From an uncultured Actinomycetes bacterium (GTDB lineage: Bacteria; Actinomycetota; Actinomycetes; Mycobacteriales; SCTD01): 64,000 bases of DNA. A model generated the notes under the pieces. The model made no database searches. It was not told where the DNA came from and saw nothing but the letters and a program-made list of their open reading frames with translations. A program made the translations under genes and the position numbers. The stretch is taken from assembly GCA_963784675.1 (NCBI GenBank), contig CAWASE010000013.1, forward strand, positions 226,660-290,659. Direction: 5' to 3'. The stretch's first letter is position 1; each line of letters begins with the position of its first letter. Below are positions 30,754 through 40,115 of the stretch, piece after piece.

Positions 30754-32133
30754 ATGGCCCTGATGCCCATCACCGACTCGATGTTCATGCTGCCCGAGTC
30801 GCGCGAGCAGCCCATGCACGTCGGCGGGCTCCAGCTGTTCGACCTGCCGCCCGGCGCCGACAAGCACTGGCTCGGCGACCTGTACCGGCAGGCCATCCAG
30901 AGCGACGAGGTCGACCCGGTCTTCCGGCGGCGGCCGCACCGGTCGGCCCTGACGCTCGGTCAGTGGACCTGGCAGGACGAGCCCGGCATCGACCTCGAGC
31001 ACCATGTGCGGCACTCGGCGCTGCCGGAGCCGGGTCGCGTCCGCGAGCTGCTGGCGCTCACCTCCCGCCTGCACGGGACCCTGCTGGACCGGAAGCGGCC
31101 GCTGTGGGAGGCGCACCTCATCGAGGGGCTGGAGGGCGACCGCTTCGCCGTCTACATCAAGCTGCACCACGCCCTGATGGACGGGGTCTCGGCGCTGGCC
31201 CTGCTGCAGCGCAGCCTCACCACCGACCCGGACGACCGCAGCGTGCCTGGGCCGTGGGCGCCACGCTCGGTCGAGCGGGCTCGGCGGAGCTCGGGCCCGC
31301 TGTCCGCGCTCTCGGTGCCCCTGTCGATGCCGCGCCTGGCGCTCGGGATGGCGGGCGACGTGGTCGGGCTGGTGCCGACGCTGGCCCGGCTCGCCAGCGA
31401 CGCGCTGCGCTCGCAGACGACGGCGCTCCCGATGCAGGCGCCCCGCTCGATGTTCAACGTCGGCATCACGGGCAGCCGTCGCTTCGCCGCCGAGTCGTGG
31501 TCCATCGAGCGCATCAAGCGCGTGGCGAAGGCCGCCGACGCCACCCTCAACGACGTCGTGCTGGCGATGTGCAGCGGCGCCCTGCGCGCCTACCTGCTCG
31601 ACCTGGACGCCCTGCCGGACAGCCCGCTCATCGCCATGACCCCGGTGTCGCTGCGCAACGAGGACACCCCCGAGCACAGCAACGCCGTCGGCACGATCCT
31701 GTGCAACCTCGCGACCGACCTGGAGAACCCCGGGGCCCGGCTGGTGGCCGTGCGGGCCTCGATGCTGCAGGGCAAGGCCGTGCTGGCGGGCCTGAACCAG
31801 AACCAGGTCACGGCGCTGTCGGCGGTGGTGATGGCGCCGCTGCTGCTCAACTCCGTGCTGGCGCTGCACCGGGTGTCGCCCCCGCCGTTCAACCTGGTCA
31901 TCTCCAACGTGCCCGGCCCGAAGGACCCGCTCTACTGGAACGGCGCGCGGCTGCGCGGTACCTATCCGCTGTCCATCCCGCTGGACGGCCAGGCGCTGAA
32001 CATCACGCTGACCAGCTACGACGGCCAGCTGCACGTCGGGCTGATCGGGTGCCGTCGCACCGTGCCGCGGCTGCAGACGCTGCTGGTGCACCTCGAGCAG
32101 GCGCTCCAGGAGCTGGAGAGCGTCGTGCTCTGA
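30754..32133 (+). CDS. wax ester synthase/diacylglycerol acyltransferase (WS/DGAT)
   Basis: Active-site HHALMDG and the N-terminal sequence PMHVGGLQLF, which I recognise as typical of this family. Confidence 0.85.
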   Translation: MALMPITDSMFMLPESREQPMHVGGLQLFDLPPGADKHWLGDLYRQAIQSDEVDPVFRRRPHRSALTLGQWTWQDEPGIDLEHHVRHSALPEPGRVRELLALTSRLHGTLLDRKRPLWEAHLIEGLEGDRFAVYIKLHHALMDGVSALALLQRSLTTDPDDRSVPGPWAPRSVERARRSSGPLSALSVPLSMPRLALGMAGDVVGLVPTLARLASDALRSQTTALPMQAPRSMFNVGITGSRRFAAESWSIERIKRVAKAADATLNDVVLAMCSGALRAYLLDLDALPDSPLIAMTPVSLRNEDTPEHSNAVGTILCNLATDLENPGARLVAVRASMLQGKAVLAGLNQNQVTALSAVVMAPLLLNSVLALHRVSPPPFNLVISNVPGPKDPLYWNGARLRGTYPLSIPLDGQALNITLTSYDGQLHVGLIGCRRTVPRLQTLLVHLEQALQELESVVL

Positions 32134-32163
32134 CCGAGGTCGGCGGTCGGCTCGCACGCACGG

Positions 32164-32191
32164 ACGGCCGGTCCCTCGCGGGACCGGCCGT
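32164..32191. terminator. bidirectional stem-loop terminator between convergent genes
   Basis: A perfect 12-bp stem, acggccggtccc-tcgc-ggggaccggccgt read as acggccggtccc / gggaccggccgt. No U-tract, as I would expect for a high-GC actinobacterial terminator. Confidence 0.6.
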
Positions 32192-32205
32192 CGACGTGGA
32201 GGTGC

Positions 32206-32898
32206 TCAGGCGTTCGCGACCGTGGCCTGGCTCGGCGTCTGGACCGAGGTCGGTGACTGCTGCGGCGAGGGGGTCGTCGCCGCGTCGGTGTCGGGGCCGG
32301 GCCCGTCCCCGTGCTTGCTGGCGGGGCCGTGCCCGCCTCCGTGGTGGCCGCGACCGCCCCGCGGCGGTCCGGTCCGATCGACCCGGTCCGCCACCTCTGC
32401 GGCGAGACCGGCCTTGCGGGCGTCGGCCTGCGCCTGCGTGAGACGACCCGCGGCGACCGCCTCGGTCAGCCGCTGCTGGCCGGCGGCGACGAGCGAGTCG
32501 ATCAGGGCCTGCTTGGCGACGCCGTGAGCAGCAGCCACCTGGGCCAAGGTCTTGCCGGACTGCAGCTCGGTGCGCAGCTGGGCCGGCGTCAGGCCGAGCA
32601 GGTCGGCGATCTCCTGGGCGCCGGCTTCCCGTCCGCCGGGTCCGGCGGCGCGCTGGTCTCCGGCGGCGCGCTGGGGCGGCGTCGCCTGCAAGGTGCTCGC
32701 GACCTTGTCGGCCTGCGCCTGGGTGAGGGTGCCGTCGGTGACGAGACCCTTGAGGGCGTCCGTCAGCGCCGACAGCCGGCCGCCCACGCCCGATCCGGGG
32801 TCGGCCTGAGCGGCAGCGGGCAGCAGCACGGCCCCGGCCAGCCCGAGGGAGCCGGCCAGGGCGGTGCCGGCGACCGTGGTCACGAGGCGCTTGCGCAT
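32206..32898 (-). CDS. secreted LTxxQ-motif protein with Gly/His-rich tail (paralog of 39453-40115)
   Basis: The ATG at 32898 is preceded by GGAGGA. Signal peptide ...LLPAAAQA-DPG. Motifs TLTQAQADKV, GLTPAQLRTEL and RLTQAQADAR. The tail reads PPRGGRGHHGGGHGPASKHGDGPGPD. Confidence 0.7.
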   Translation of the reverse strand: MRKRLVTTVAGTALAGSLGLAGAVLLPAAAQADPGSGVGGRLSALTDALKGLVTDGTLTQAQADKVASTLQATPPQRAAGDQRAAGPGGREAGAQEIADLLGLTPAQLRTELQSGKTLAQVAAAHGVAKQALIDSLVAAGQQRLTEAVAAGRLTQAQADARKAGLAAEVADRVDRTGPPRGGRGHHGGGHGPASKHGDGPGPDTDAATTPSPQQSPTSVQTPSQATVANA

Positions 32899-32961
32899 GG
32901 GTCCTCCGTCGTCAGGGCCCGCGTCGTCGCGGGCGCTCTGGCGTCCACTGTGGCCGCGCAC

Positions 32962-32990
32962 CCTGTGACGCGGCTGTGACGGGCCTGTGA
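32962..32990 (-). promoter_or_regulatory. three 11-nt-phased PhoP-box-like heptamers (TCACAGG, TCACAGC, TCACAGG on the minus strand)
   Basis: The + strand reads cctgtgacgcggctgtgacgggcctgtga. The heptamer T residues are at 32990, 32979 and 32968. The element lies 63 nt upstream of the ATG at 32898, in the same orientation as the gene. Confidence 0.55.
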
Positions 32991-33006: not shown

Positions 33007-33956
33007 TCACAGGGCCCGCGGCGCCCACGCGACCGCTGCCGCCGCGGCGCCGACCGTGGCCAGCAGCGCGAGCCCGGCCGCTGGCGCGCCGACCGGCTGT
33101 CGTTCGGTGGTGGTCCCGAGACTGCTGCCGATGTCGGCATAGACCGCGGTGAGCTGCTCGCCGTCGGCCGCCTCGTACGCGCTGCCGTCGGTGCCGGCGG
33201 CGAGCTGGGCGAGGGCGGGGGCGTCGACCGGGACGCCGCAGGGACCGCCGGTCGACGGTGACGGTGCCCTGCTGGGTGCCGTACGCGATGGTCGAGACGG
33301 GGACGTGCGCCGCCGTGGCCAGGGCCGCCGCGGCGTCGATGCTGCGGCCGGCGGTGTTCGCGCCGTCGGACAGCAGGACGATGTGCGCGGGGACCGGGTC
33401 GCCGCCACCAGGGACGGCGTCGACGGCCGACAGGGAGGCTGCGACGGCTTCGCCGACGGCGGTGCCGTTGCCCGAGCCGCAGCGGTGCCGATGGCCCGCT
33501 CGACAGCGAGGTGCTCCTGCGTGGCGGGGACGACGACGGCGGCGGTGCCGGAGAAGGCGACCAGGCCGACGTTGAAGCGCGCAGGCAGCCCGTCGACGAA
33601 GGACTGGGCGGCCGCCTTGGCGGCGGTGAAGCGGTCCGGAGCGACATCGGTCGCCGCCATCGACAGCGAGACGTCCAGGGCCACCACGACGGTGGCCCGC
33701 TCGCGTGGCACCTGGACCTCGGCGGACGGGTCGGCGAACGCCGCCGTCGACCCGGCCAGCGCCGTCAGCACCAGAGCCGCGCCGGACGTGCCGGCGCCAG
33801 CCGAGCCGGGGCGCGACCGACGCAGCAGGTCCAGGCCGGTGAGCCGGACGGCATAGCGGCTGCGCCGGCGTTGCGCGAGCACGTACGCCGCGCCGAGGGC
33901 GACGACGACGAGAGCAGCCAGAGCCGCCCGGGATGGTCGAAGACGAGCCCGGTCAT
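33007..33956 (-). pseudogene. VWA domain-containing protein (BatA-like), reading frame broken about 3 times
   Basis: MTGLVFDHPGRLWLL..., MIDAS VVVALDVSLSMAATDVAPDRFTAAK, FNVGLVAFSG, then GNGTAVGEAV...HIVLLSDGANTAG...VSTIAYGT in another frame, then VPVDAPALAQLAAGTDGSAYEA back in the first. It is collinear with the intact paralog at 35975-36949. Frame changes lie near 33905, 33485 and 33253. Confidence 0.6.
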
Positions 33957-34891
33957 GCCGCACCCGCCCGGACGCGCGGCGCCGCGGGTGCGGCGCCGGA
34001 CGGTGAGGAAACGGGCGAGCTGCGGGAGCCAGTCGGTCGTCGGTCAGCACGACCAGGTGCCCGGCGCCGGCGCGCGTACCGCCTGGCGCTGCGCGCTCGC
34101 CCGCTCTGCGGCCGCGGCGGCATAGCGCGCACGCGTCCGGGCGTCCGTGCGCAGGGTGACCCCGGCCCCGCCGGTCCGGGATCGGCGAGCTCAGGACGCC
34201 GACCGCGGGCAGGCTCGAGCTCGCGGCGGTCGACGACCTGGGCGACGAGCGACGTCGTGCCGGGCGGCGAGCAGCCGCAGCGGGCGCGCCAGTCTCGACC
34301 GGGTCGAGCAGGTCGCTGACCACGACCACCATGCCGCGGCGGCGCGGGCGGGCGACCACCGCCCGCGGGCCGGCGGCGAGGTCGAGGGGGCCCTCGCGGT
34401 GCGACGCGGGGCTGGCGCAGCAGCGCCGGACGAGCGCGCGTGGACCCGGCGCGTCCGGCGCGGGCCGGCAGCGTGGCGCACGGCGTGCCCGTCGACCACC
34501 AGGGCCCCGACGCGGTCGCCGGGCCGGGTGCCCAGGTGCAGGAACGCCGCGGCGAGCGCCAGCGCGACCTCGCGCTTCTCCGCGGTGGCCGTCCCGAAGG
34601 ACATGGACGCGGAAAGGTCTACCAGCACGGTGGTCTCGAGCTCCCGCTCGGCCACGGTCATCCGTACGTGCGGGGTCGTGCTGCGGGCGGTCACGGCCCA
34701 GTCGATGCGGCGGACGTCGTCACCGGGTGCATAGGCGCGGGCCTCGGCGGCCTCGGTACCGGGCCCCGGCAGAGAGCCCAGGTGGTCGCCCTGCACGAGC
34801 CCGTCCAACCGTCGGGAGACGTCGTACGGGAGCCGGCGCAGCCGGGCGGGCGCGGCGAGAGGGGGCGGCGGCAAGGCCGTCGGCGCGCCTC

Positions 34892-34895
<4 letters not shown>
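33953..34895 (-). pseudogene. DUF58 domain-containing protein, reading frame broken many times
   Basis: The ATG at 34895 sits in an ATGA overlap with the inferred moxR stop. YAPGDDVRRIDWAVTARS...TVLVDLSASM is in one frame. RRRGMVVVVSDLLDP, WARPLRLLAARHDV, LVAQVVDRRELE, LPAVGVL, ELADP, GVTLRTDARTRARYAAAAAERA, HLVVLTDD and DWLPQLARFL are scattered over all three frames, indicating at least 8 indels. Confidence 0.55.
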
Positions 34896-35936
<1,041 letters not shown>

Positions 35937-35974
35937 GGTGCGGACTCCTTGCAAGAGGGACGGGACGGGACAGG

Positions 35975-36949
35975 TCAGACCAGGCGCGAGAACCACGCCA
36001 GGGACAGGGCAGAGCCGGCAGCGAGCAGGGCGAGCGCGCCGCCGGCGAACAGGTCGGCCAGGTCGGTGCGCCGGGTCAGCTGCACCAGCTGGGAGGTGAT
36101 GTCGTCGTAGGTGGCGCGCAGCTGCTCGGCCGAGGCAGCGGTGTAGGCGGTCCCGCCGGTCTCGGCGGCGACCTGCGCGAGGGCCTCGCTGTTGACGGGC
36201 ACCTGGTAGGTGATGCCGTTCGCGACCACGATCCCGCCGGGGGTGCCGTAGGCGATCGTCGAGACGGGGACGCCGGCGGTCTGCACCGCCGTGGTGGCGT
36301 CCGGGAGCGGCGTGCCGATCGTGCTGTCTCCGTCGGAGAGCAGCACGATGCGACCGGCTCTGGAGAGGTCGGCCTGCGGCAGCGCCGAGGCGACCGCGTC
36401 CAGCGAGGTGAGCAGGGCGTCGCCGGCCGCGGTGCCGCCGGACATCGTCAACCCGTCGACGGCCCGGGCCACCTGCTCGTGCTCGGCGGTGGGCGCGGCG
36501 ACGAGGGTGACGGCGGCGTCGTAGGACACCAGCCCCACGTCGACGTCGGCCGGCAGGTCGCGGACGAAGGCCTTGGCCGCGGCGGTCGCGGCAGTGAACC
36601 GGTCCGGGGCGACGTCGGTCGCCATCATCGAGGAGCTGGTGTCCAGGGCGACCAGGACGACGGCCCGCTCGGTGGCGTGGTCGGCGAGCACCTGCGGTCG
36701 GGCGAAGGCGGTCGTCAGGGCGAGGACCGCGAGGACCAGCCCGCCGGCCGCGACCGGCCGTCGCCAGCCGGGCCGGTGCGGCGCGACGGACGGCAGCAGG
36801 GCGGCCTCGGCGTACTGCTCGCTCCCGCGCCGGTGCCTCCACCGGACGAGCAGGCCGACGACCCCGGCTACCGCCAGGACCGCGAGCAGCCACAGCCGGC
36901 CGGGGGCGTCGAAGCGGAAGTCGGCGGCAGCGAAGGTGTGAGCGTCCAT
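35975..36949 (-). CDS. VWA domain-containing protein (BatA-like), intact
   Basis: MDAHTFAAADFRFDAPGRLWLL, TM segments, MIDAS VVLVALDTSSSMMATDVAPDRF, VGLVSYD, GGTAAGDAL, IVLLSDGDST, and a C-terminal TM. Confidence 0.8.
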   Translation of the reverse strand: MDAHTFAAADFRFDAPGRLWLLAVLAVAGVVGLLVRWRHRRGSEQYAEAALLPSVAPHRPGWRRPVAAGGLVLAVLALTTAFARPQVLADHATERAVVLVALDTSSSMMATDVAPDRFTAATAAAKAFVRDLPADVDVGLVSYDAAVTLVAAPTAEHEQVARAVDGLTMSGGTAAGDALLTSLDAVASALPQADLSRAGRIVLLSDGDSTIGTPLPDATTAVQTAGVPVSTIAYGTPGGIVVANGITYQVPVNSEALAQVAAETGGTAYTAASAEQLRATYDDITSQLVQLTRRTDLADLFAGGALALLAAGSALSLAWFSRLV

Positions 36950-37037
36950 GGCCAGAACGGTGCGGCGCGGTCCTGGCACCGACCTGCGCACCGGCTGGAC
37001 GTCCGCTGTGCACTCCCGCGGCTACCGTGCGACGGGC

Positions 37038-37077
37038 TCACAGCAAGCTCACAGCAAAGGCCCAGACTGGTGACAGG
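37038..37077 (+). promoter_or_regulatory. PhoP-box direct repeats in the divergent promoter (TCACAGC-N4-TCACAGC, plus in-phase GCCCAG and TGACAGG)
   Basis: Read directly: gcTCACAGCaagcTCACAGCaaaggcccagactggTGACAGGcc. The heptamers start at 37038, 37049, (37060) and 37071. The element lies 66 nt upstream of the RR ATG and 89 nt from the vwa1 ATG. Confidence 0.65.
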
Positions 37078-37142: not shown

Positions 37143-37877
37143 ATGACCACCGCCACCCGCCCGGACAGCGAAGCCCGGCTGCTCGTCGTGGACGACGAGC
37201 CCAACATCCTGGAGCTGTTGTCGGTGAGCCTGCGCTTCGCTGGCTTCGACGTCGCGACGGCGACGAACGGCGTGGACGCCCTGAACCGGGCGCGCGAGTT
37301 CCGTCCCGAGCTGATGGTGCTCGACGTGATGATGCCCGGCATGGACGGGTTCGAGGTGGCCCGGCAGCTGCGCAGCACCGGCGACCAGGTGCCGGTGCTG
37401 TTCCTGACCGCCAAAGACGCCACCGAGGACCGTGTGCAGGGCCTGACCCTGGGCGGCGACGACTACGTCACCAAGCCGTTCAGCCTGGAGGAGGTCGTGG
37501 CCCGCATCCGCGCGGTGCTGCGTCGCACCGGCGGAGCGGCCGCACCGGACCCCGTCCAGAGCCGCTCGCGACTGTCCTACGCCGACATCGTCCTGGACGA
37601 CGACACGCACGAGGTGTGGAAGGGGGAGCAGGAGGTCGACCTGTCCCCGACGGAGTTCAACCTGCTGCGGTACCTGCTGCAGAACCCGGGTCGGGTGCTG
37701 TCCAAGCGGCAGATCCTCGAGCACGTCTGGAACTACGACTTCGGTGGTGACGGCAACGTCGTGGAGTCCTACATCTCCTACCTGCGCCGCAAGGTCGACA
37801 CCGCCGAGCCCCGGCTGCTGCACACGGTGCGCGGGGTCGGCTACGTCCTGCGGCTGCCGAAGTCGCCGGGCGCGTGA
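37143..37877 (+). CDS. phoP: OmpR/PhoB-family response regulator, closest in my reading to M. tuberculosis PhoP (Rv0757)
   Basis: ARLLVVDDEPNILELLSVSLRFAGFDVATATNG...MVLDVMMPGMDGFEV...LTLGGDDYVTKPFSLEEVVARIRAVLRR...LSPTEFNLLRYL...NVVESYISYLRRKVD...LHTVRGVGYVLR. This is near-collinear with Mtb PhoP as I remember it. GAGGAG RBS. Confidence 0.8.
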   Translation: MTTATRPDSEARLLVVDDEPNILELLSVSLRFAGFDVATATNGVDALNRAREFRPELMVLDVMMPGMDGFEVARQLRSTGDQVPVLFLTAKDATEDRVQGLTLGGDDYVTKPFSLEEVVARIRAVLRRTGGAAAPDPVQSRSRLSYADIVLDDDTHEVWKGEQEVDLSPTEFNLLRYLLQNPGRVLSKRQILEHVWNYDFGGDGNVVESYISYLRRKVDTAEPRLLHTVRGVGYVLRLPKSPGA

Positions 37878-39352
37878 GCCCCGGCCCGGACGTCGCTCCG
37901 AGGACGGGGCGGCTCTCGCGGGTGCCGCTGCGCACCCAGCTCGTGGCCCTGCTGCTCGGCACCGTCGCCCTGGTCGTCGCGCTGACCAGCGTCGCGGGCA
38001 GCGTCGCCCTGCACGACTACCTGGTGAACCGCATCGACGTGCAGCTCGCCGCGGCGCTCGAGGATCCCGGCGGCCCCGGCGGTGCCGGGTTCGGGCGACC
38101 GCGTCGCGGTGGGGGGCCCGACGAGGGCGGCCGGGACGTCGCCGTCACGACCCTCGACTACGACGCCGAGGGGCGGCTGTCCCCCCGCGACGTCGCTGAG
38201 CTCGCTGCCTTCGGCGGGCCGGAGGTCGACGACCCGACGGCGCTGCCCGACGGGCCCTCCGACGTGCCCGCCGTCTCCGGTGCCGGCAGCTGGCGGGTGC
38301 TGGCCGGCGACGGCTCGCGCACCGGCGGGGTCCGCGTGGTCGCCGTGTCGCTGGACGGGGTGCGCGACACCGGCTCGCAGCTGCTGCTCATCAACGCTGC
38401 CGTCGGCCTGATCGCCTTGGCCGGGGCGGGCGTGCTGGCGTGGGCCGCGGTGCGCCGCAGCCTCGCGCCGCTGGTGTCGGTGGAGGAGACCGCCGAGGCG
38501 ATCGCGGCAGGAGACCTGACCCGTCGGGTCCGCGAGGGAGACCCGCGCACCGAGGTCGGCTCGCTCGCTGCCTCTTTCAACAGCATGGTCGACCGCTTCG
38601 AGAGCGCGTATTCGGCCCAGCAGCAGTCGGAGTCGGCGGCGCGCGCGTCGGAGGAGCGGATGCGTCGTTTCGTCGGCGACGCCAGCCACGAGCTGCGCAC
38701 GCCGTTGACGTCCATCCGCGGGTTCGCCGAGCTCTTCCGGCAGGGAGCGGCGCGCGAGCCCGAACAGCTCGCCCGGGTGATGCGTCGCATCGAGGACGAG
38801 GCAGCCCGGATGGGGCTGCTGGTCGAGGACCTGCTGCTGCTCGCGCGGCTGGACCAGCAACGGCCGCTGCGACAGGAGACGGTCGACCTGCTGTCGGTCG
38901 TGGCCGACGTCGTGCACGACGCGGCGACGGTGTACGAGGACCACACCGTGCGCCTGGTCGCCCCCACCGGGCCGGGGCTGCCGGAGGTCGTCGGCGACGA
39001 CCCGCGGCTGCGGCAGGTGTTCAGCAACCTGGTCACCAACGCCGTCACGCACACCGCTCGCGGGACCACGGTCGACGTCGCGCTGCACGCCGACCACGTC
39101 ACCGTCACCGTCACCGTCACCGACGACGGAGCCGGCATGGCCCCGGACGTCGCGGAGCGCGTGTTCGAGCGGTTCTACCGCGCCGACGCCTCCCGCTCGC
39201 GCACGGCGCCGCAGGCCAGCGGCAGCGGCCTGGGCCTGTCCATCGTGGCTGCCCTGGTGGCGGCGCACGGGGGCAGCGTCGAGGTCACCAGCACGGTCGA
39301 CGTCGGTACGTGCTTCCTGGTGCGGCTGCCGGCCCGGCCCGTCCAGGACTGA
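37874..39352 (+). CDS. phoR: sensor histidine kinase (PhoR-like: TM-loop-TM, HAMP, HisKA, HATPase_c)
   Basis: GTGA overlap with the RR gene. Two TM segments flank an extracytoplasmic loop of about 150 aa. H-box RRFVGDASHELRTPLTSIRGFAELFRQGAA. DDGAGM and GSGLGLSIV. Confidence 0.8.
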   Translation: MSPGPDVAPRTGRLSRVPLRTQLVALLLGTVALVVALTSVAGSVALHDYLVNRIDVQLAAALEDPGGPGGAGFGRPRRGGGPDEGGRDVAVTTLDYDAEGRLSPRDVAELAAFGGPEVDDPTALPDGPSDVPAVSGAGSWRVLAGDGSRTGGVRVVAVSLDGVRDTGSQLLLINAAVGLIALAGAGVLAWAAVRRSLAPLVSVEETAEAIAAGDLTRRVREGDPRTEVGSLAASFNSMVDRFESAYSAQQQSESAARASEERMRRFVGDASHELRTPLTSIRGFAELFRQGAAREPEQLARVMRRIEDEAARMGLLVEDLLLLARLDQQRPLRQETVDLLSVVADVVHDAATVYEDHTVRLVAPTGPGLPEVVGDDPRLRQVFSNLVTNAVTHTARGTTVDVALHADHVTVTVTVTDDGAGMAPDVAERVFERFYRADASRSRTAPQASGSGLGLSIVAALVAAHGGSVEVTSTVDVGTCFLVRLPARPVQD

Positions 39353-39367
39353 CAGCCGGGTCACAGC
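39350..39367 (+). promoter_or_regulatory. PhoP-box-like direct repeat TGACAGC-N4-TCACAGC
   Basis: It starts at the phoR stop codon and lies 86 nt upstream of the ATG at 39453. The spacing is 11 nt, and the orientation is the same as at the phoP promoter. Confidence 0.45.
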
Positions 39368-39452: not shown

Positions 39453-40115
39453 ATGCGCACCAAGCTCGCCACCGCCGCTCTGATCGGCTCCCTCGGCCTG
39501 ACCGGCGTCGCCGGCGCGGCCCTGCTCTCCCCGGCCGTGTCCTACGCGGCGACCGGTGCCGCGACCGCCGTCTCGGACCGCGCCGCCTCTCTCGCCAGCA
39601 CGCTGAAGGGTCTGGTGAGCGACGGCACCATCACCCAGGCGCAAGCCGACAAGGTCGCCTCCACGCTCGCCGCGGCGGCTCCGGCCCGCGGTGACGGCGG
39701 CCCCGGGCACGGCCGCGACGGAGGCGGCGGCGGCCGGGTCGACCAGGCCGCTGCCGCCACCGCGCTGGGCCTGTCCGCCGACGCGCTGCGGACGCAGCTG
39801 GACGCGGGCAAGACCCTCGCGCAGGTCGCCGACGCCCAGGGCGTGGACCAGGCGACGCTGGTGAAGGCGCTGGTCACCTCGGCGAAGGGGCGGCTGGCCG
39901 ACCAGGTCGCCTCCGGCCGGATCACCCAGGCGCAGGCCGACACCCGGGCCAGCACCCTGCAGGCCGAGATCACCGAGCACCTGGACGACGTCTGCCTGCC
40001 CGGGGGCGGCGGCCCGGGCCACGGCCCGCGCGGCAACGACGGTGACGCCGACGACGCCCCGGCCACCACCGCGTCGCCCGCTCCCGCGACGGCGGGCGCC
40101 GGCAGCGCCGCCTGA
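39453..40115 (+). CDS. secreted LTxxQ-like protein with Gly/His/Asp-rich tracts (paralog of 32206-32898)
   Basis: AGGAGA RBS. Signal peptide ...LLSPAVSYA-ATG. LKGLVSDGTITQAQADKVASTL is nearly identical to the paralog. GKTLAQVADAQGVDQATLVKALV...RITQAQADTR. Tracts GDGGPGHGRDGGGGG and PGGGGPGHGPRGNDGD. Confidence 0.7.
   Translation: MRTKLATAALIGSLGLTGVAGAALLSPAVSYAATGAATAVSDRAASLASTLKGLVSDGTITQAQADKVASTLAAAAPARGDGGPGHGRDGGGGGRVDQAAAATALGLSADALRTQLDAGKTLAQVADAQGVDQATLVKALVTSAKGRLADQVASGRITQAQADTRASTLQAEITEHLDDVCLPGGGGPGHGPRGNDGDADDAPATTASPAPATAGAGSAA

Follow-up and report, generated by a model that had tools for sequence, protein, structure and literature searches.

The window analyzed here is a 64,000-nucleotide stretch of DNA from an uncultured Actinomycetes bacterium of the order Mycobacteriales (contig CAWASE010000013.1), and our subject is a gene on its minus strand (hereafter the target gene) that encodes a predicted exported, helical protein of 230 residues. 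The target gene lies 4.2 kb from the genes of a two-component system, with a cluster of MoxR, DUF58 and VWA genes in between (Table 1). The response regulator of this system is of the Mycobacterium tuberculosis PhoP type: its match to the PhoP structures 3r0j and 5ed4 in the PDB (E = 2e-101, 68% identity) leaves those to PrrA (9e-58) and MtrA (4e-50) far behind, and the six residues through which PhoP contacts DNA bases in the PhoP-DNA crystal structure, N212, V213, E215, S216, Y217 and Y220 (PMC4832192), are all conserved in its recognition helix as N, V, E, S, Y and Y. It is also 87% identical to the response regulator of a Frankiales metagenome-assembled genome. The partner gene encodes a PhoR-like sensor histidine kinase with HAMP, HisKA and HATPase_c domains, whose extracytoplasmic loop of ~125 residues (residues ~45-169, as read by eye) is placed between two predicted membrane helices. 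This loop holds a Gly/Pro/Arg-rich low-complexity stretch with a composition reminiscent of the linkers found in the secreted family to which the target belongs. Directly 3' of phoR lies a paralogue of the target (220 residues, 47% identical, BLASTP E = 1e-33). The positional link to a two-component system that an earlier reading of this DNA had claimed (the original prediction, made from the sequence alone) is therefore borne out, both by the nearby regulator and kinase genes and by the paralogue right after phoR, and it recurs in other genomes.

Table 1. Features of the target gene, its predicted product and the surrounding phoPR locus, with positions in the window (aa, amino acids; pLDDT, predicted local distance difference test score)
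Feature	Position	Strand	Remarks
Terminator-like GC hairpin	32163..32192	minus	13-bp stem; directly past the target stop codon, between convergent genes
Target coding sequence	32206..32898	minus	230 aa exported-type helical protein, DUF2680-related family; from translation
Disordered tail, residues 175-230	32209..32376	minus	pLDDT 50-68
Gly/His-rich part of the tail	32290-32370	minus	GPPRGGRGHHGGGHGPASKHGDGPGPD, then a Pro/Ser/Thr/Gln-rich end
Core module, residues 91-174	32377..32628	minus	three short helix-turn-helix-like helices and a long hairpin; pLDDT ~95
LTQAQ no. 3	32428-32442	minus	within core module
LTPAQ	32578-32592	minus	within core module
Flexible Gly/Pro-rich linker, residues 73-90	32629..32682	minus	pLDDT 55-59; no His in target
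N-terminal helical hairpin, residues 38-72	32683..32787	minus	AlphaFold helices 38-54 and 60-72; pLDDT 75-82
LTQAQ no. 1, turn of N-terminal hairpin	32713-32727	minus	T59 right before the helix from residue 60
Predicted Sec-type signal peptide, residues 1-32	32803..32898	minus	MRKRLVTTVAGTALAGSLGLAGAVLLPAAAQA; MRKR, hydrophobic core and AQA; predicted cleavage before D33
Ribosome-binding site GGAGGA	32902..32907	minus	4-9 nt ahead of the target ATG; read from sequence
Three PhoP-box half-sites	32963..32990	minus	cTCACAGgccc gTCACAGccgc gTCACAGggtg; 65-92 nt before the target ATG
MoxR ATPase/DUF58/two-VWA cluster	33007..36991	minus	between target and phoP
PhoP box pair	37038..37054	plus	gcTCACAGcaa gcTCACAGcaa; upstream of phoP, predicted autoregulation site
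Response regulator, PhoP type	37143..37877	plus	
Sensor histidine kinase, PhoR-like	37874..39352	plus	
PhoP box pair	39350..39366	plus	TGACAGccgggTCACAG; upstream of the paralogue, overlaps the phoR stop codon
Target paralogue	39453..40115	plus	directly 3' of phoR

The M. tuberculosis PhoP site consists of direct repeats of TCACAGC separated by a 4-bp spacer (PMC4832192). When the 64 kb were searched for TCACAG-N5-TCACAG with at most one mismatch, four box pairs were found against 0.22 expected, a number that none of 100 shuffles reached. All four lie upstream of the target, phoP or the paralogue, each oriented with its downstream gene, and the half-sites ahead of the target follow an 11-bp period so that they make up two overlapping pairs. 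Relaxing the search to two mismatches yielded only chance-level extra sites across the window. The upstream repeats that the original prediction had described as shared with the two-component system are thus recognizable as PhoP boxes, and from these sites the target gene is predicted to be under the control of a PhoP-type regulator.

To place this arrangement in a broader setting, we analyzed 80 homologous loci from other genomes, 55 of them with full flanks, and scored a homologue as adjacent when a response regulator or histidine kinase gene lay within 600 bp. Adjacency was found for 28 of the 80 homologues (35%) and for 20 of the 55 with full flanks, relative to ~1.4% expected from the density of response regulators in the distal flanks, an enrichment of about 25-fold. 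Three gene orders occur (regulator-kinase-homologue, homologue divergent from the regulator, and homologue-regulator-kinase), and by their recognition helices the regulators next to homologues in Actinomycetota, Chloroflexota and Bacillota are of at least four types. One Frankiales metagenome-assembled genome (locus L002) reproduces the layout of the window, with one copy divergent from a regulator-kinase-copy series and without the 4-kb cluster. The boxes follow the family as well: at one mismatch or fewer, the 24 kb formed by the 300 bp upstream of each homologue hold 15 PhoP boxes, versus two in 1.04 Mb elsewhere (~250-fold), and in 11 orthologues they precede the start codon by 63-105 nt. 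These 11 include orthologues that lack a neighboring regulator/kinase pair (L003, L005, L008, L019, L068 from Geodermatophilus obscurus, and L084). The logic of the layout is mirrored in Paenibacillus sp. S-38 (L042, 7640-7720), where an OmpR-type regulator from a different, unrelated subfamily is divergent from a two-module homologue and the intergenic region between them holds TTCACC direct repeats in both orientations. At L084 (5905-5921; 6737-8326), a perfect TCACAGGTCCGTCACAG box lies 96 nt ahead of P0041, a homologue not linked to a regulator/kinase pair, and the gene that comes next encodes a Na+/H+ exchanger. A link to pH through this exchanger was considered and discarded, the adjacency being absent from the other 80 loci.

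The product of the target gene is best read from the ATG given in Table 1. An alternative open reading frame of 251 residues starting at GTG 32961 overlaps the upstream repeats, and every homologue begins with MRK, none backing the GTG; for these two reasons we take the ATG as the true start. The signal peptide ending in AQA that had been noted earlier is present, with its last alanine at residue 32, and its pattern of n-region, h-region and AxA is common to 98 of 100 homologues, with P27, A30 and A32 invariant or nearly so across the family alignment. The protein carries no twin-arginine motif and no cysteine, hence no lipobox cysteine, and is predicted to be exported to the extracytoplasmic space. 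Beyond the signal peptide, AlphaFold models a short N-terminal hairpin, a flexible linker, a compact core module with helices at residues 91-101, 105-113, 118-124, 129-149 and 155-174, and a disordered tail, and a second model of a trimmed protein (residues 36-180) agrees with that of the full-length chain. The linker is 38% Gly and 8.1% His across the 100 homologues and is His-rich in most of them. The Gly/His-rich tail claimed by the original prediction is likewise real (RGGRGHHGGGHGPASKHGDGPGPD, residues 180-203), with only four His in the target and two or more in 69 of the 100 homologues. Across the same set, the tail contains 5.9% His; the helices, in contrast to both linker and tail, contain 0.4-0.8%.

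The three LTxxQ motifs reported earlier are all present, as TLTQAQ (residues 57-62), GLTPAQ (102-107) and RLTQAQ (152-157), which is more than chance would give, since composition shuffles predict 0.17 (P(>=3) = 5e-4). Motifs one and three are retained throughout the family as G-x-[LI]-T-Q-A-[QE]-A-D; the middle one is not conserved, and the family consensus at that place is G-I-T-V-x-E-L. In both AlphaFold models helices start at residues 60, 105 and 155, right after T59, T104 and T154, such that each motif falls at a predicted helix N-terminus. A hydrophobic staple together with a T-x-x-Q capping box is a classical arrangement of the helix N-terminus that can recur without shared ancestry. 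As modeled, the LTxxQ motifs of the target are helix N-capping boxes of this kind, that is, a generic local motif. Because such a box recurs without common ancestry, LTxxQ alone is not a fit basis for assigning a protein to the CpxP/Spy group.

The target belongs to a very large family. A word-indexed search returned 899 homologues at E<=1e-3, and a family profile search matched 16,726 clusters at 50% identity, 9,754 of them at E<=1e-10. Typical members have ~200 residues and come from Actinomycetota, with relatives in Chloroflexota and Bacillota (Paenibacillus, Brevibacillus, Cohnella), and their architecture comprises a signal peptide, a short hairpin, a Gly/His-rich linker, an 85-residue module and a Gly/His-rich tail. 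The hairpin of the module turns at the G-x-[LI]-T-Q-A-[QE]-A-D signature. The module occurs one to seven times per protein among relatives. Three multi-module relatives of 1,000-1,360 residues (P0245, P0320 and P0271) have a trypsin-like protease domain at the N-terminus or a PKD domain at the C-terminus, fusions that confirm an extracellular setting for the module and, from domain content, point to an extracellular binding or spacer role. Among named families, it is related to DUF2680 (PF10925, the Bacillus YckD family). At E<=0.01 the DUF2680 profile picks up 64 of the 100 homologues (best 2e-8), and PF10925 matches are also precomputed for many homologues; the target matches weakly over residues 148-165 (E = 0.0034, 17.9 bits against a gathering score of 25 bits), and the paralogue does not match. 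The part that matches is the long hairpin with its G-x-LTQ-x-Q-AD turn, and DUF2680 members, as predicted for those of the target family, are exported and found in Gram-positive-type bacteria. In contrast, the DUF2680 profile spans the hairpin alone and leaves the three preceding helices of the target module outside it. Judged from these matches, we treat the target as a distant relative, and in the literature on DUF2680 and YckD we found no functional data and no link to a two-component system.

Further afield, SHOCT and DUF1707 SHOCT-like motifs and GP23.1 of phage SPP1 share the inter-helix turn 'aGrLTqeEad' with the target family, but these are short, generic and functionally uncharacterized motifs, and against the target they align locally and score below threshold. 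The two halves of the module are covered by weak local matches, to SHOCT-like motifs and SPP1 GP23.1 as well as to many helix-turn-helix families, and one multi-module relative reaches 1e-16 against SHOCT when summed over its repeats. Sequence searches of the PDB gave chance-level matches together with local ones to SPP1 GP23.1 and to a designed helix-turn-helix repeat. By sequence, then, the target is a predicted Sec-exported, mostly helical member of a very large, uncharacterized DUF2680-related family.

The original prediction had placed the target with the periplasmic proteins CpxP, Spy and ZraP, and this family assignment does not stand. Neither LTXXQ (PF07813) nor Metal_resist (PF13801) matched the target at E<=10 or any of the 100 homologues at E<=0.01 in a Pfam scan that recovered the Escherichia coli MG1655 controls CpxP (8e-22), Spy (2e-23) and ZraP (5e-23). 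Aligning the family with a CpxP/Spy/ZraP alignment by hhalign gave a probability of 1.1% over 28 columns around a single LTxxQ-initiated helix; the latter profile was shallow (6 sequences, effective number of sequences ~2) because a Spy search of a large protein database returned only near-identical enterobacterial Spy proteins. Foldseek searches of 350,542 PDB chains with the full-length and domain AlphaFold models produced nothing at E<1, and no CpxP, Spy or ZraP was among the matches listed. We therefore reject homology of the target to CpxP, Spy and ZraP. The earlier caution that the resemblance is confined to the motif level was well placed, with Pfam, hhalign and Foldseek giving support for nothing more. 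We did not find LTXXQ discussed for Gram-positive bacteria in the literature. Overall, what survives of the original prediction, and with strong support, is an exported-type protein tied to PhoPR by a PhoP-type regulator, its boxes and gene adjacency.

The comparison with these systems is nonetheless instructive at the level of organization. E. coli CpxP, the CpxAR inhibitor, is an exported protein made up of helices, as is predicted for the target, and LTxxQ motifs mark the beginnings of helices in both, although the paralogue of the target has no strict LTxxQ. Like genes of the target family, cpxP lies beside or divergent from a regulator/kinase operon and carries sites of the regulator. Specifically, cpxP is transcribed divergently from cpxRA and strongly induced by CpxR, and its product inhibits the kinase CpxA by way of the periplasmic domain and can be titrated by misfolded proteins (PMC6737893). 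The layouts at L002, L014 and L017, which we call ancestral, are likewise divergent from the regulator gene. However, CpxP and the target lack sequence, profile or fold similarity and differ in helix topology; the host of the target, unlike that of CpxP, has no outer membrane and so no Gram-negative-type periplasm; and CpxP inhibits its kinase, which the target would do by analogy. ZraP, the ZraSR modulator of E. coli and Salmonella, is exported and helical with Gly/His-rich ends (HGGHGMW... GGCGGGGHMGMGHW) and is encoded divergently from its two-component system, all of which recall the target family. It differs in matching Metal_resist at 5e-23, which the target does not, and in its partner, ZraSR being an NtrC-type sigma-54 system and that of the target belonging to the OmpR/PhoP type; for the target, binding of metal would be a conjecture from His composition. 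Spy, an ATP-independent periplasmic chaperone of E. coli induced by envelope-stress two-component systems, is also exported and helical with LTxxQ, but it is not homologous to the target, its gene is not adjacent to those of its regulators, and chaperone activity of the target would be hypothetical. Closer in lineage are LpqB (with MtrAB) and CseA (with CseBC), actinobacterial extracytoplasmic proteins encoded beside an OmpR-type regulator/kinase pair and thought to modulate the kinase. They share extracytoplasmic location and gene position with the target; in contrast, they are lipoproteins of unrelated families, and the target has no lipobox cysteine.

We lean, with somewhat more confidence than doubt, towards the reading that the target is a PhoP-induced exported envelope protein, a dedicated output of its PhoPR-type system and possibly a feedback modulator, analogous and not homologous to CpxP and ZraP. 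In such a circuit the PhoR-like kinase would phosphorylate the PhoP-type regulator, and the phosphorylated regulator, judging from the boxes, would bind the three TCACAG repeats and activate the monocistronic target gene as well as the paralogue after phoR and phoPR itself. The target would then be exported and cleaved after AQA32, and the mature protein would serve the system as its dedicated output within the cell envelope. The most speculative steps follow: the His-rich arms would sense or buffer an envelope condition, whether protons, metal ions or unfolded proteins, and the target would feed back on the extracytoplasmic loop of the kinase by the logic of CpxP and ZraP. We regard this sensing and feedback, an analogy with the E. 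coli systems, as tentative and rather less probable than its absence. The feedback step is attractive because the linkage persists across regulator subfamilies and phyla and because two copies bracket phoPR, and conservation of the folded module implies a specific partner. Bolder, and slightly more doubtful again, is the proposal that the whole family is a single-membrane counterpart of CpxP and ZraP, with an independent origin in a module built of helix-turn-helix and SHOCT-like parts: Sec-exported and regulator-induced, its members would bind the extracytoplasmic loop of PhoR-type kinases and of other kinases partnered with OmpR-type regulators, to be released or altered on contact of their His-rich arms with protons, metal ions or unfolded envelope proteins.

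Several points weigh against our main reading. About two-thirds of the homologues are not beside a regulator/kinase pair, many unlinked homologues have no recognizable PhoP box at one mismatch or fewer, the linker of the target itself has no His, and the CpxP/Spy/ZraP profile behind the hhalign comparison is shallow. In M. tuberculosis, Rv0756c, which may or may not belong to the family, is divergent from phoP and bound by PhoP yet barely regulated. Moreover, the trypsin- and PKD-fused multi-module relatives are easier to square with a module of general use for binding or spacing outside the cell than with an accessory dedicated to signaling. That possibility, in which a wall-attached or client-binding module (in the manner of a chaperone or an HtrA PDZ domain) happens to fall under PhoP control in this lineage and has no specific relation to the kinase, would accommodate both the repetition and fusion of the module and the ~65% of homologues unlinked to a regulator/kinase pair; it is at odds with the ~25-fold enrichment of adjacency, with the two copies that flank phoPR in the window and in L002 and with the conservation of boxes even at unlinked copies, and we judge it improbable. 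Somewhat more credible, though still unlikely, is that the target is an effector only, a PhoP-induced extracytoplasmic metal or proton buffer in the manner of SilE and PcoE whose arms sequester Zn, Ni or Cu or titrate protons, with no part in signaling. The 3- to 10-fold enrichment of His in linker and tail family-wide is consistent with such a buffer, PhoP boxes mark the gene as an output of the system, and adjacency to a regulator and kinase is also typical of plain regulon members. Yet the best-conserved part of the protein is the His-free folded module and not the arms, the target has no His in its linker, only four in its tail and no Cys or Met clusters, and adjacency across at least four regulator subfamilies in three gene orders would be unusual for a simple metal sponge.

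Two further explanations carry far less weight. A very divergent but true member of the CpxP/Spy/ZraP group (LTXXQ/Metal_resist) would account for LTxxQ at helix starts, for a Gly/His tail that recalls ZraP, for the link to a two-component system and for the fact that the sole hhalign alignment sits on an LTxxQ-initiated helix. Such membership is highly improbable given the negative Pfam scan with positive controls, the hhalign probability, the lack of a PDB neighbor and a paralogue that has two ITQAQ stretches but lacks any strict LTxxQ. The helices also differ in number and order, as the three short helices and hairpin of the target stand against the long bent helical hairpin, or cradle, of the CpxP/Spy fold. 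Least probable of all, to the point of being barely worth entertaining, is a cytoplasmic helix-turn-helix DNA-binding protein that is not exported. It is suggested by weak matches to several helix-turn-helix families and by the names ("sigma subunit", "UPF0251") that the Joint Genome Institute gives to two homologues; against it stand the near-universal signal-peptide pattern, the fusion of relatives to secreted trypsin and PKD domains and the fact that all helix-turn-helix matches fall below Pfam cut-offs for single-module proteins.

The family itself was already known as an uncharacterized, DUF2680-related one. What is new is that position and cis-elements couple it, in a conserved way, to OmpR-type systems, PhoPR-type ones among them, together with the case for convergence with CpxP and ZraP. 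A very large family thereby gains a testable role as a conserved exported partner of OmpR-type two-component systems. PhoPR is a major virulence regulator of M. tuberculosis, and to our knowledge it is still unclear how its kinase senses its signal. A PhoP-box-controlled secreted protein flanking phoPR in environmental relatives is a tractable handle on what PhoR-type kinases monitor, and the counterpart of CpxP and ZraP proposed above, if true, would provide PhoPR-type systems in Actinomycetota, Chloroflexota and Bacillota with their extracytoplasmic input and with negative feedback.

The immediate surroundings of the target gene offer additional detail. A consensus scan for promoters and terminators found nothing, as expected at the 73% GC of this DNA, and the GC content at third codon positions of the target (0.91) resembles that of the genes around it, that of the paralogue being 0.95. 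Between the target and the convergent gene for a WS/DGAT acyltransferase (30754-32133), the region 32134-32205 holds the strong GC hairpin, which folds at -43.6 kcal/mol (z = -3.4), an energy matched by none of 200 shuffles, and has no T-run; it is probably a bidirectional terminator. With this hairpin after its stop codon, the target looks like its own transcription unit.

On the other side of the target gene, the MoxR/DUF58/VWA cluster is absent from L002 (2216-3629), where the two genes that it separates in the window are directly divergent, so that the cluster looks inserted into an ancestral divergent promoter region. Within the cluster, MoxR and the distal VWA gene (35975-36991) seem undamaged. 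The other two, DUF58 and the target-proximal VWA gene (33007-34950, minus), switch frame repeatedly: the match to the DUF58 profile is divided between two frames, and the VWA_2 match ends at 68 of 107 positions, with VWA continuing in another frame. These two genes are either decaying pseudogenes or marked by local indel errors. Just past the three boxes of the target, a lone TCACAG in the opposite orientation (33007-33012, plus) overlaps the VWA stop codon and may be what is left of the box on the phoP side of an ancestral promoter that was divergent.

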